Shown piece after piece: positions 2,126 through 53,845 of a DNA stretch of 64,000 bases; positions within the stretch are counted from its first letter, which is position 1; each line of letters opens with the position of its first letter. The stretch comes from Octopus vulgaris. Lineage: Eukaryota. The DNA lies in contig OX597826.1 of the NCBI GenBank assembly GCA_951406725.2, positions 3,224,001-3,288,000 of the forward strand. The letters are read 5' to 3'. Below the pieces are notes generated by a model. That model searched no databases and was not told where the DNA came from. It saw only the letters and a list, made by a program, of their open reading frames with translations. The translations under genes and the position numbers were made by a program.

Positions 2126-2365
2126 CGTTTATATATTTGTTTTGCAAGGTTTTTGATGTGAAACAGATATTGTTGTATTTAGGAATGGTCATTTTGCCAG
2201 TTTTACCATTAAAAACACACGCACTATATATAGTCTGTGTGGCCGAAATAAGATTAAGATTAATGTAAAAAATAAATAACTCTGAAGCAAACTAACACCA
2301 AATATATAGTGCGTGTGTTTTTATTGGCTAAACTGGCAAAATGATCATTCCTAAATACAACAATA
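2126..2365. mobile_element. (TA)n-flanked fold-back element with the 3' half of a hammerhead-like motif
   Basis: Inverted arms 2167-2232 and 2303-2365 (~63 bp, few mismatches); (TA)n on both sides; spacer begins ...GGCC-GAAA-TAAGA-TTA; homologous to 58067-58185. Confidence 0.6.
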
Positions 2366-2599
2366 TATATATATATATATATATAACTCGCCCCGAGTTA
2401 AAGATGATAATGAAATTTCAAAACGCCATCTAGATTACATAAGTCTCAACTGCTAGTAGCCGAGATATCAAATTTCTATATTAATAACCCTCCATTCAAT
2501 GCCAGCATGAGACTTAGACGTTAAGTGAAATGTTAAAAGAAAGTTTACAACCCATATATGTATATAAAGTAAATATACGTATTTCAAAAACACATTCTG

Positions 2600-3140
2600 T
2601 GTAGCTTATTTCGTAATAAAAAAAAACAATACAGATTATAAACAATCAAAGGCCAATTTTGGTGATGCATTTGACAGAGGTAGTAGGGAGCCAATCTGAT
2701 GATAAATCTGACCTTGGAAGTTTGCATGAATCCTGATTCAGTTGAATCGCTTATGGCTCCAAATGATGTCATCTCTAGTGTAGCGTTGCATTGCCTAATT
2801 TTGTTGTGGACGTGCTTGGAATCTACTTTAGTTGATGACAGCAGTTTCTTGAATGGCTCTGGAGGTTGGGGATTGCACCAATGGAAACACCAGTGTCATC
2901 TGCAGAATGAACTGCTGAGTTATAATTGAAAATTGCTTCATAGAAGTTGCTTCTCTGATTTGCTGCAACTGCTCTTCGTTCTGCAGTGGAGATCCTATTC
3001 CTCGTCAGCCGTCTATAACTCTGTTCACCACATTCAGAGGCTCTGGTTTTGTAGTGCACAGTCTGTTTGTTTCTTCGCATGCTTCCCTTTCTGCAGCAGT
3101 CTCTATTTCCCTGAACAGAGACATGATTTTGACTGACCTT
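2600..3140 (-). mobile_element. Helitron Rep/helicase N-terminal fragment (degenerate), copy 2
   Basis: Minus strand with frameshifts: FYEAIFNYNSAVHSADDTGVSIGA...PEPFKKLL...SKHVHNKIRQCNATLEMTSFGA...GFMQTSKV/QIYHQIGSLLP, matching the Helitron IR-YN-FQMTSFGA...F-PTFK-QGQIYH-GSLLP motif. Confidence 0.85.
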
Positions 3141-3574
3141 CACATTGTAGACACGTTTGACAATTTCCTACTAAGTATGGTTATATACATATACAGAAAT
3201 ACACGGGTACAAAAGATAGTAAACAATACAAATAACTGGGTAACGAAAATTACGTCACTTCTCTCAGTAATTATGTATGAAATTACGTTCATTAGTAATT
3301 GTGAACAACTTTCTGTCAGTAATTTGTCGTTGTTGCTTGTAAATAGCGATTGAAAATTTACAGTGAAAACAATAGCGACTGAACTCAAAGTGAAAGCAAT
3401 ACCGTCTGAAAAATGAAAGTGAATACAATAGAGAGTGAGTTTGATATAGGGAGAGGGGAAAAGAGAACTAGCTAGTTAGACAAATAAGATAGAGAGCGAG
3501 AGAGATCGATAGAGAGATAGAGCAAGATACTGAAGCTAGAAAATGATTTTATGACCAATGGATGTTGAAGAACA

Positions 3575-3770
3575 TTTAGGCATCGAGCTAGCAGTTTTGT
3601 TACCTAACAGAACGAAACGCTTCGTGCCATTAATTTCAGCTTCGTATTTCGAGTTCAAATTCTGCCGAGGTCGAGAAAATACGTATATAAGTTGAGGGCT
3701 GGAGTCGATATATTCGATTATCTACCTCGCCCAAAATTTCAAGCCCTGTGCTTGTACAAGAAAATACTTT
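3575..3770 (+). mobile_element. degenerate copy of SINE type M
   Basis: gagctagcag...gagttcaaattctgccgaggtcga...ggagtcgat similar to the copy at 48556. Confidence 0.55.
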
Positions 3771-3795
3771 TAGCAAGCGACATAACAATTATGGT

Positions 3796-4042
3796 GGAGG
3801 TGCGTAGTTTAGTAGTTAGGGTGTCAGCATCATGATCGTAAGATTGTGGTTTCGATTCCTGTGCCAAGCGATGCGTTGTGTTCTTTAGCAAAACACTTCA
3901 TTTCACATGCTCCAGTCCACTCAGCTGGCAAAAATGAGTAAGGCTGCGATGGACTGGCGTCCGGTCCAGCTGGGGAGCACATACGCCATAGAAACCGGGA
4001 AACCGGCCCCATGAGCCTGGCTAGGCTTTAAAAGGGCACATT
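3796..4042 (+). mobile_element. tRNA-derived SINE, head B (CORE-like centre) + tail 1
   Basis: A-box-like tagtttagtag, B box gtttcgattcc; centre gtgttctttagcaaaacactt...ccagtccactcagctggcaaaaatgag; tail gactggcgtc...gaaaccgggaaaccgg...atgagcctggctaggc shared with 12412. Confidence 0.85.
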
Positions 4043-50345: not shown

Positions 50346-51016
50346 ATTAATGATAAGCTTTGAGAGATGGTTTATTTTCATTATTTTCGAAATAGTTTGT
50401 CATCTTGCTGCGACTCTTTTAAGTATAACACCTCCTAATATCTGTCTGAAATTTGTGTTAATATCTCGGCCTTTTGATCTTGTTCAAAGTGTGCTCGTAT
50501 CGGTTTCCTGATTCGGAATTCACCTTCAAAGGACTTGCTTATTTTATCCAAGTATTAAAATAATTTCGACTGGGCTTCCAAAGAGCTGTGAAATATACGA
50601 AAGGTGTGCTGGGCTATCTTTTAAGGATCAGTTCTTTTTTAGGTGAGCGGTATCTTTGCTTCATGGGTGGTATATACCTAATCTCTGATTTTGTTGCCTA
50701 TCATTGTCACTTTCAAAATGTCTACAGGGCCTCTAGGTTCATCACAAGATGAGTTGCGACGATAATGCTGGGAGCAGGTATATGGAAATCGTTTAGTAAT
50801 TCCCGTTGCAAGAGTTACCGAAATTTCTATGTTTACATTGAAGGATGCAAGCAGGTTTCTATGGATAGACATATGTATGTATGAATACATGTATGTATGT
50901 ATGTATGTGTATATATACCTGAACGCATGACTGTCATACTGTATATATATATATATATATATATATCTCGCAATCGTCATATATATATATATATATATAT
51001 ATATATATATATATAT

Positions 51017-51493
51017 GTGAAATAAAAAAATGAATAATCTTGTAGCAGATTAATCAAAAGTTTAACCGATACCTTGGTAGCAAAAATCACAGCAGAAGAC
51101 AGCACGGTTGGAGGTACAACCATATGGTGTTGCAACCGTGCGTTGGTGCGGATAATTGAATTTTAATATTATTACACACCCCGTGCCCTCATCCACAGGA
51201 ATGACCGCTGCCTGACCCGTTAAAATCTTCAACGCACCCACCACCCGTTCTCAACATACACTGATAAACAGTTTGACCATGGGCTCTTAGGAGCCTAGTT
51301 CGATTTGTTTTGCTCCGCCTCTGTTCTGTTTTTGTTTTTTCCAAAGTATTTCCTATTTCTTCCTGAAGAGAAAGACACAATATGGTCTCATTATTCAATC
51401 GGATTTTGGTAAATTGTGCCTTTCGAAACACGTGTAGAATGAAATAAAACGATTTCTGTTCAATCTTCGTTGAGCTCCATTTCTTCAATTCAC
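51017..51493 (+). mobile_element. (TA)n-flanked element with hammerhead and loose inverted termini
   Basis: Long (TA)n on both sides; ends gtgaaataaaaaaatg / catttcttcaattcac; internal hairpin gcacggttg...caaccgtgc; HHR 51354-51446. Confidence 0.75.
51354..51446 (+). ncRNA. minimal type I hammerhead ribozyme
   Basis: tatttcTTC-CTGAAGA-GAAAGaCACAAT...ATTGTGcCTTTC-GAAA-CACGTGT-A|GAAtgaaata; canonical core, 11/12-bp stem II, palindromic ACACGTGT stem III, GUA triplet. Confidence 0.9.
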
Positions 51494-53153
51494 TATATAT
51501 ATATATATATATATATATATATATATATATGAAGTTATATATATAATATTTTATATATATATATATATATATATATATATATATATATGGCCATCTTCAT
51601 GTATATATATCTATATGTATATATATGTATATGTATGTGTGCATATATGTATGCATGTATTCAAACTCATACATATTTATATGTGTATAATCACATGATG
51701 TACATGTATACATGTGTATATATATATATATATGCGTGTGTGTGTGTGTGTGTGTGTGTGTGTGTGAGTGTGTCTGTGTGTGTGTGTGTACGTGTGCATC
51801 TGTGTGTGTATGCATATATATACTACATTCAGATATTTATATAATAATTGAGATGTTAAGTAACACTAGCTAGTGATTGGAACATTATGTGTTTCCGTCT
51901 CTGACGTTCACATCTCACCAAATACTAACAGAATATGATAAACGGACAATGTTACTTATTAAATATACGATGGTGTTTTCAATGCTTTTGGGGGTTCCAT
52001 TTGACTGATTATTCTATTTCCTGTGTTTTCATTTTTATTGTTTTGGTATAGTATTATGTTAAGTATTTTTTCTTTATGTTTTGTTATGTTGATTTTTTTA
52101 TGCAGAGTTTTGCTTTGTTTATTTCTTTCTTCTGTAGACGTTTCTTTTTTGCCCAGACCACCTTGAAATGTCAAATTTATATAATACACGTAGAGTAAAT
52201 AGTCTCATGACCTACCTATATATCGCTGTATCTATCTAGATAATTGTTAATTTAACATGAATATCCGCATACACACGGACACCTACAAACACTCAGGCCG
52301 ACACACATATACACACACAAACTCACCTCCACCCAACACAAAATAAACAAATATGTACGCATTCACATCGCTATTATACATATATGTGTATTTGTGAGTG
52401 CATATGTATGTATACTTGTACGTATATCTGTGTCGGAATGCGTGTATGTGCACTTGCATATCTATATCTTATTTTGTATATGTATATATATATCTATATA
52501 TATATATATATCATATATATATACACTACATATATATTTTCTTATATAAGTATGTATATATATATATATATATACTTATATATATATATATATATATACT
52601 TATATAAGAAAATATATATGTAGTGTATATATATATATGATATATATATATGAGTATATGTGTGCCCGTAGTGTTGTGTGTGAATGTATCATGGCTTCTG
52701 CATTGTAAGTCTGTTTATATTCCATACACCATTATGGTCAGCAGACGTTTGCTACTTCTGTATATACACATAGATTACATTATGTTATATTAAATCAACA
52801 TCTTAGGAGTTCATCGGAAACTATTGGCCATATTCTAGTTTGTTTACGCTTTATTTCTTGTCTCTCATGCCAGTCTGTTTAAATTCGAATTTCTTTCCCA
52901 GCGTCGTCTGAGGTAATGCAAATGTGTCTTCTGCACTAGATTTGATAGACTTTTTCGTTTTGGTATAAACACAGGCAGACACAGATGTACGTATATCCGT
53001 ATCTGGTGATAAATATGATAAATACACACACACATGGATATATATCTGTGTGTGTACGTTCGCGGGCTTTATATATATATATATATATATATATATATAT
53101 ATATATATATATATATATATATATATATATATATATATATATATATATATATA

Positions 53154-53514
53154 TAAGGAAAGAAAAAAAAATGTAGGTGTAGACGATCTTTAATTCATTG
53201 TCCACGTCGTTACAGATCCAATAGAAATTCTACAAATTGTTTTGAAGTCTAATTAATTCTTAAGTCAAAGACAAATAAATCCTCTTGAATTAAAAATTAG
53301 ATTCTTGGTCAGGAATTACATATCGATATGAATAATAACCGCCAAAATCAATATAAAAAGACGAAGAATCTCATTTTTATTTCAAGAAGAGTTTCTCGCT
53401 TTTGACTTTGGAATAAATGAGACTCCGAAACAACTTGTAGAATTTATATTGGATATGTACTAACCAGGATTATGAATTAAAGATCGTCTACAACTGCATT
53501 TTCCCCTTTTCTTA
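53154..53514. mobile_element. (TA)n-adjacent fold-back with ~150-bp arms and a decayed hammerhead-like motif
   Basis: 53154-53308 is the inverse of 53364-53514; TTC-AAGAAGA-GTTTCTC...GAGACTCC-GAAAC aactt GTA|GAA at 53381-53444. Confidence 0.65.
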
Positions 53515-53564
53515 CACTTCATTTATTGTGTTTATTTTTGCAAAATTAATATATATTCTTTATA

Positions 53565-53845
53565 TTTATATACTAATAGAATTGGCAAGACAATAAAAGA
53601 ATAAAAGAGACCTCGATGTTATGTAAATATAGGAATTTATTTGTAAATAAAATATGGATTAATTATTCGGTAGCCATTATAAAATTCCAAGTTTCGGATG
53701 TCGGTGCAGAAACGCACTCCGGCATCATTCCAGGTATCAGGCCATCAAAGAAAGTGTTATTACTGAAGTGATGCCGGCGTGAGAATCCGCCACGACATCC
53801 GAAAATCGGAGTTTTATCATGGCTACCGTATAATTGTCACATATT
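53565..53845. mobile_element. fold-back element with a hammerhead-like motif in both arms
   Basis: 53651-53733 is the inverse of 53763-53845; CTGAAG-TGATGCCGG...CGACATCC-GAAA. Confidence 0.6.

Follow-up and report, generated by a model that had tools for sequence, protein, structure and literature searches.

We describe eleven short non-coding elements in a 64,000-nucleotide (nt) stretch of Octopus vulgaris DNA (assembly GCA_951406725.2, contig OX597826.1, positions 3,224,001 to 3,288,000 of the forward strand; hereafter the window), which we interpret, with a probability of about 0.8, as dead, 5'-truncated 3' ends (pseudo-long terminal repeat, pLTR, or 3' untranslated region) of about ten families of endonuclease-positive (EN+) Penelope-like elements (PLEs). 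The source clades are probably ones that prefer (TA)n, for example Hydra or Neptune. The window consists of AT-rich animal DNA in which microsatellites and short repeats are abundant, and long, strongly strand-skewed trinucleotide repeat fields lie at 18990–21450, 29690–30560 and 49300–49800. All eleven pieces listed in an initial annotation are present, beginning about where it placed them, and are named here by those starts: E1 2126, E2 11090, E3 16239, E4 17140, E5 32229, E6 35920, E7 39712, E8 49830, E9 51017, E10 53154 and E11 53565. They are 200–480 nt long and sum to 3,495 nt, or 5.5% of the window. The initial observation is mostly real but somewhat overcounted, and structural tests for PLE insertion are passed, the length of the overhangs apart. 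The elements and their motifs, in window positions, are as follows.

E1, 2126–2363: head-to-head pair, with a plus-strand copy at 2232–2363, an inverted copy at 2170–2231 and a 44-nt tail at 2126–2169; no hammerhead found.
E2, 11090–11478, plus strand: lone 3' stump without an inverted arm, sharing a family with E5; what may be left of a Hydra-type open reading frame (ORF) end lies at 11108–11179.
E2 hammerhead, 11275–11338, plus strand: minimal type I, with an exact core, 6-bp stem I, palindromic helix III and a partly decayed stem II.
E3, 16239–16497: inverted arms at 16241–16317 and 16369–16439; 58-nt right overhang; no hammerhead.
E4, 17132–17584, plus strand: plus-strand copy from about 17252, short inverted copy at 17223–17251; overhang of at most 91 nt.
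E4 hammerhead, 17451–17493, plus strand: minimal type I with an exact core; by eye, the layout resembles Hydra-clade motifs.
E5, 32221–32420: minus-strand copy of the terminal ~84 nt of the E2 family, with a short inverted copy (28–29 nt) and an 85-nt overhang.
E6, 35923–36126, plus strand: lone stump flanked by TA tracts, without an inverted arm.
E6 hammerhead, 35987–36022, plus strand: minimal; first core box altered (two changes, or a U3-A8 core plus one extra base).
E7, 39714–40099, minus strand: minus-strand copy from about 40000 with a 71-nt tail; inverted copy at 40000–40061 plus 38 nt.
E7 hammerhead, 39909–39981, minus strand: minimal; A6G core change, 7-bp stem I, long stem II.
E8, 49830–50044, minus strand: minus-strand copy starting at about 49950, inverted copy at 49942–49978; overhang of at most 66 nt.
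E8 probable hammerhead, 49905–49955, minus strand: cut at the inversion junction, with a G3-C8 core or a core deletion; not significant alone.
E9, 51016–51493, plus strand: longest stump, without an inverted arm; TA tracts on both sides.
E9 hammerhead, 51356–51444, plus strand: minimal type I, with an exact core, long stem II and palindromic helix III.
E10, 53156–53552: 151-nt arms at 53160–53310 and 53360–53513; right-side overhang; no hammerhead.
E11, 53565–53850: 88-nt arms at 53646–53733 and 53763–53850; 81-nt left overhang; right end adjoining a CA tract; no hammerhead above chance.
E1 relative, absent from the earlier list, 58013–58181, plus strand: tail included; in the leader of a long terminal repeat (LTR) retrotransposon relic, not in (TA)n.

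Inverted arms, families and the TA-rich target

Arms were found by aligning each element to its own reverse complement and comparing the result with 60 dinucleotide shuffles per element. Significant inverted end copies are present in eight of the eleven elements (0/60 shuffles each), with arm lengths of 62 nt (E1), 77 nt (E3), 29 nt (E4), 29 nt (E5), 62 nt (E7), 37 nt (E8), 151 nt (E10) and 88 nt (E11); no inverted arm was found in E2, E6 or E9 by the same alignment. This bears out the earlier claim that most of the elements have one end duplicated in inverted orientation. All eight arm pairs are unequal, with an overhang of 38–91 nt beyond one arm (E7 has both a 71- and a 38-nt overhang), and symmetric terminal inverted repeats (TIRs) at both outer ends are absent from every one of them. 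Where polarity can be read from the hammerhead (E4, E7 and E8), the duplicated end is the 3' end, downstream of the ribozyme, in 3/3 cases, and the copies therefore lie head to head. A fold-back scan of the masked window returned nine fold-backs, as against none in two shuffles; six are listed elements, and the other three are a mariner-like remnant, a small hairpin and a short interspersed nuclear element (SINE) that has an inverted copy of its start. The scan missed E4 and E5. By eye, the right overhang of E7 (40062–40099) includes a third, short fragment of the element's arm, of the kind that a template jump would leave.

The primary sequences are mutually unrelated with one exception, as the initial annotation had it by eye: among the 55 possible pairs only E2 and E5 align clearly (score 68, 0/100 shuffles), and the E7/E9 pair reaches 1/100 shuffles over a 24-nt AT-rich stretch. 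Three ends of the E2/E5 family share one 3' terminus and reach back from it by about 390, 84 and 28 nt; E5 lacks a hammerhead because its reach from the 3' end is too short. The second copy of the E1 family, at 58013–58181, carries the tail and consists of a single arm plus tail with no partner. The 5' reach thus differs within both multi-copy families (E2/E5 and E1/58013), at two loci each. From the hammerhead core to the 3' edge the distance is 130, 131 and 136 nt in three unrelated elements (E4, E9 and E6 respectively), 198 nt in E2 and, with the tail, 261 nt in E7, and the copies that bear a hammerhead begin between about 0 and 347 nt upstream of it. No element contains a tandem or direct duplication, or paired direct hammerheads.

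TA-rich DNA flanks 21 of 22 element ends (21 of 24 once the copy at 58013 is counted). The corresponding figures are 5 of 34 for the ends of other repeats and 8% for random 20-mers. The count for the elements is partly circular because most element borders were drawn at TA tracts. The fair test is therefore the seven tail-less arm ends that are fixed by alignment, six of which adjoin TA-rich DNA against the 8% background (binomial p ~2e-6), and this supports the proposal that (TA)n is the landing site. Each of the three best hammerhead matches is flanked on both sides by (TA)5 no more than 350 nt away; at a distance of up to 400 nt this is true of 0.118 of background positions. Intervals of 100–700 nt between TA tracts number 20, and seven of these are listed elements and 13 are not.

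Hammerhead motifs

All hammerhead descriptors were written after the elements had been read. Descriptor A, a scored minimal type I hammerhead, was compared with 300 shuffles per element and, for whole-window counts, with block-shuffled windows. Its top three matches in the whole window are in E9 (score 17.5, 0/300 shuffles), E4 (12, 0/300) and E7 (9.5, 1/300), and E6 scores low (3, 2/300). Three matches score at least 9, compared with 0.375 in block-shuffled windows, and two score at least 11, compared with none in eight shuffles. The E2 motif was recovered only by a second descriptor that does not demand stem II; this gives 0.305 matches per shuffled window, and its match in E7 was allowed post hoc. 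We conclude that five elements carry a predicted minimal type I hammerhead, strong in two (E4 and E9) and with an altered core or decayed stem in three (E2, E6 and E7).

The initial annotation had counted six recognisable type I hammerheads, of which these five hold against shuffles. The sixth, in E8, is probably also a hammerhead, cut at the junction: its core, stem II and helix III are found at the inversion junction, with no convincing stem I, and a looser pattern of this type is not significant (four matches in the window, compared with a shuffled mean of 1.22 and a maximum of 6). The three further motifs reported as partial or decayed do not rise above chance. Half motifs of the type seen in E3 (16239), E10 (53154) and E11 (53565) are present in 75–98% of the elements' own shuffles, and we rejected all three as chance matches; no half motif was found in E1 or E5, and no core box in E1, E3, E5, E10 or E11. 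A 96-nt piece between two TA tracts at 60714–60809 may contain a 3' half hammerhead, with folding not above shuffles.

Helix III is palindromic or nearly so in 6/6 motifs, E8 included. Rfam gave no match in the window at the gathering score, and in E-value mode no hammerhead family among the best 150 of 343 rows, which were mostly TA-repeat matches to microRNA models. By minimum free energy (MFE) folding, the E7 motif is stable (z -4.2) but in a competing pairing of the core, those of E6 and E8 are weakly so (z -1.9), and those of E2, E4 and E9 are not above shuffles; we therefore do not use folding energy as support. The 5' breaks do not cluster immediately before the core (1/6 within 12 nt).

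The variant cores of E6, E7 and E8 are more likely to reflect decay than family traits, because each is known from a single copy whose neighbours are visibly decayed. It seems unlikely, by our estimate, that some of these elements are self-standing non-autonomous octopus PLE families in which A6G (E7), the E6 box and G3-C8 (E8) are fixed traits of ribozymes still cutting, either as dimers or with a PLE protein.

Origin of the pieces

The arms, the target, the ribozyme and the pairwise unrelatedness together support the earlier link to Penelope-like elements of many families. A 5'-truncated copy with an inverted partner and a tail is the usual insertion product of autonomous PLEs (PMC8557442, PMC4209133, PMC3846280). 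In vitro, the protein of an Anolis PLE makes cuts in both strands of AT-rich DNA, and the tail is delimited by two closely spaced internal sites at which reverse transcription starts (PMC11167929). We propose that insertion here was by target-primed reverse transcription, in which the reverse transcriptase (RT) plus GIY-YIG protein of a full-length copy elsewhere would make similar cuts in AT-rich target DNA, mostly (TA)n in this window (PMC11167929, PMC8557442). Each cut end would then prime reverse transcription near the RNA 3' end from two alternative start sites, their spacing being the optional tail; the basis for this step is in vitro for the Anolis element and is here in sequence only, in the unequal reach of the arms and in one tail common to a second copy. 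Both complementary DNAs would stop early and be joined head to head, or one alone would be retained, and stumps reaching 130–200 nt upstream of the end would include the minimal hammerhead, as seen in five. Arkhipova et al. 2013 (PMC3846280) favour another model, in which an antisense template is used for self-priming, and the sequences here cannot tell this apart from two-end priming.

The hammerhead would on this account be a passenger rather than what gave rise to the stumps. The Anolis hammerhead needs protein for cutting and is dispensable for insertion (PMC11167929), and single minimal hammerheads did not cut as monomers (PMC4209133); lone motifs with a palindromic helix III, such as those here, would by analogy cut poorly or not at all as monomers.

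Several observations weigh against truncated PLE ends as the source. Five elements (E1, E3, E5, E10 and E11) lack a hammerhead, and only E5 is tied to one, through its family. Pfam detected no RT or GIY-YIG frame among the 300 longest of the 388 low-repeat frames of at least 45 amino acids, with DUF7083 alone passing the cut-off, and no parent element is linked; the X-read frames of E2 and E9 likewise gave no RT or GIY-YIG match. The E2 frame remnant, compared with 1.84 billion proteins, matched just two unrelated repeat proteins, and exact-match scans with the E6 motif found nothing in metagenome contigs or viral contigs. Palindromes of 12–14 nt at the junction, present in 3/8, are weak and indistinguishable from background (~15% for at least 12 nt). 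The overhangs of 38–91 nt compare with a published 30–40 nt, and only the E1 tail (44 nt) is demonstrated as family sequence. In structure the stumps behave as PLE insertions, their long overhangs apart, and they would presumably descend from autonomous families elsewhere.

Three Hydra-clade protein ends yielded a six-residue pattern whose single match in the six-frame window is on the sense strand of E2, 170 nt 5' of the core. We chose this pattern only after seeing the data, and 835 of the 128,000 positions would qualify as a comparable location. We rejected the identity offered by the protein search, the matches being to unrelated repeat proteins, and because of this and the post hoc choice we treat it as a hint only that E2 may start inside a Hydra-type ORF end.

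The initial annotation proposed non-autonomous, PLE- or retrozyme-like elements. Dedicated non-autonomous PLE families, that is, fixed-length short RNAs with their own promoter and hammerhead that are mobilised in trans by a PLE protein, would account for pieces that are all short (200–480 nt) and non-coding; pLTR-bearing non-autonomous PLEs are reported in Chlamydomonas (PMC8557442), and in a rotifer pLTRs alone are enough for mobilisation in trans (PMC3846280). We consider this improbable: the 5' reach varies within both multi-copy families, the distance from the 5' start of a copy to the core varies from about 0 to 347 nt, and E2 may begin inside an ORF end. The non-autonomous label is also unnecessary, since truncated inverted copies are usual for autonomous PLEs, whose insertion yields the same stumps, and neither tandem arrays nor a fixed 5' end is seen. 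Less probable still are non-LTR retrozymes, monomers of tandem hammerhead repeats spreading through circular RNA. Their ~220–350 nt monomers overlap the elements in size, and solo monomers are common in some animals (PMC7229834, bioRxiv 10.64898/2026.07.22.740005), but there are no tandem units and no paired direct hammerheads here, the tailed inverted arms are PLE insertion marks, and the motifs are of the minimal PLE type.

The hammerhead-free E1, E3, E10 and E11 could instead be miniature inverted-repeat transposable elements (MITEs) or foldback DNA transposons with a preference for TA and no relation to the stumps that carry a hammerhead. Their arms of 62–151 nt, TA flanks and lack of a ribozyme are consistent with this, and the same window does hold a mariner-like remnant with TIRs. 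That remnant, however, has symmetric 37-nt ends and no TA tract, whereas these four elements have one-sided overhangs of 44–81 nt, and the E1 relative at 58013 is a lone arm plus tail without a partner; we find this quite unlikely. As truncated PLE ends, the hammerhead-free pieces could by analogy derive from Naiad-type PLEs.

Neighbouring repeats

The E1 relative lies in an LTR retrotransposon relic at 57663–59467, with direct repeats at 57663–57792 and 59343–59467; its leader contains a short tandem repeat, and its gag-like frame, which includes DUF7083, is broken. A 92-residue frame at 58255–58530 matches two proteins among five candidates, both labelled Octopus sinensis, with 56–58% identity; this one transposon protein and the overall repeat composition are what suggests an octopus-like host from the sequence itself. 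The relic is presumably Ty3/Gypsy, with a putative primer site. The E1 relative ends ~19 nt before the gag-like frame, and a 52-codon open frame runs from it into that frame; the relative may be either a nested insertion or a native part of the leader.

A SINE-like copy at 36177–36516 lies between TA-rich tracts and is preceded by an inverted copy of the first ~45 nt of its family, which is partly lacking in its own body. The internally deleted element at 38425–38938 has symmetric 37-nt inverted ends and served as a control; its frame resembles, by eye, the end of a mariner transposase, for which Pfam gave no confirmation. The small hairpin from the fold-back scan is 54 nt long and lies beside TA-rich DNA at 59745–59798. 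A 153-codon open frame at 55998–56459 has no Pfam match and resembles a transposon remnant.

Relation to known elements

The elements belong to a known class that has already been reported from this lineage. The 5'-truncated inverted copy, the one-sided tail of 30–40 bp and the (TA)n bias have been described (Craig et al. 2021, PMC8557442), and the same source lists, for O. bimaculoides, the (TA)n-targeting Hydra-1_Obim, which is 2507 bp long with its hammerhead at 2403, along with two octopus Naiads that share this target. In the O. vulgaris genome, 190 PLE families account for 6.83% of the sequence (Bonar et al. 2026), and since this compares with 5.5% here, the density and number of families are as the literature predicts. 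The suggestion that they may not be described in this lineage is thus largely wrong for octopus. We found no genome-wide survey of octopus hammerheads in the literature searched, most subscription journals being outside the search.

Hydra-clade PLEs share with the elements here the (TA)n preference, a minimal type I hammerhead near the 3' end, a palindromic helix III and an octopus host, and Penelope-13_HM also shows a 5'-truncated inverted copy (PMC8557442). By subtraction, Hydra-clade motifs start ~90–210 nt before the consensus end (File S2, PMC8557442), and the cores here lie 130–261 nt from the edge. The elements differ in having no RT or endonuclease frame and in overhangs exceeding 30–40 nt, and by eye the 3' end of Hydra-1_Obim matches none of them. 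EN+ PLE pLTR structures have the same head-to-head inverted copy, tail at one end and AT-rich target (PMC3846280; Frangieh et al. 2024, PMC11167929), but here there is no ORF between the repeats, and target-site duplications are unreadable inside (TA)n. The octopus Naiads (Naiad_Obim and Naiad_Ovul) share the (TA)n target, inverted copies with tails and the lack of a canonical hammerhead; the 3' end of Naiad_Obim, the only one compared, matches no element here by eye.

Metazoan PLE minimal hammerheads likewise include scattered single motifs ascribed to truncated PLEs, in many sequence families per genome, and have an extra base before stem II, a palindromic helix III and a U3-A8 core variant (Cervera and de la Pena 2014, PMC4209133). 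The A6G change of E7 and the E6 core, one copy each here, are not named in the available text of that paper. Animal non-LTR retrozymes (PMC7229834; bioRxiv 10.64898/2026.07.22.740005) are also short and non-coding, with a type I hammerhead and a proposed PLE origin, but are defined by tandem units with a hammerhead in each, of which there are none here.

The elements therefore add further examples to a described class and illustrate how such stumps can be misread as MITEs or overlooked by Rfam. If the variants of E6, E7 and E8 were fixed and still cutting, they would widen the known natural hammerhead core. Were they fixed in whole families and active, the 190 or so PLE families of an octopus genome would together serve as a mutagenesis experiment by nature on the hammerhead core, and octopus would also be a good place to ask what role the ribozyme has for PLEs.

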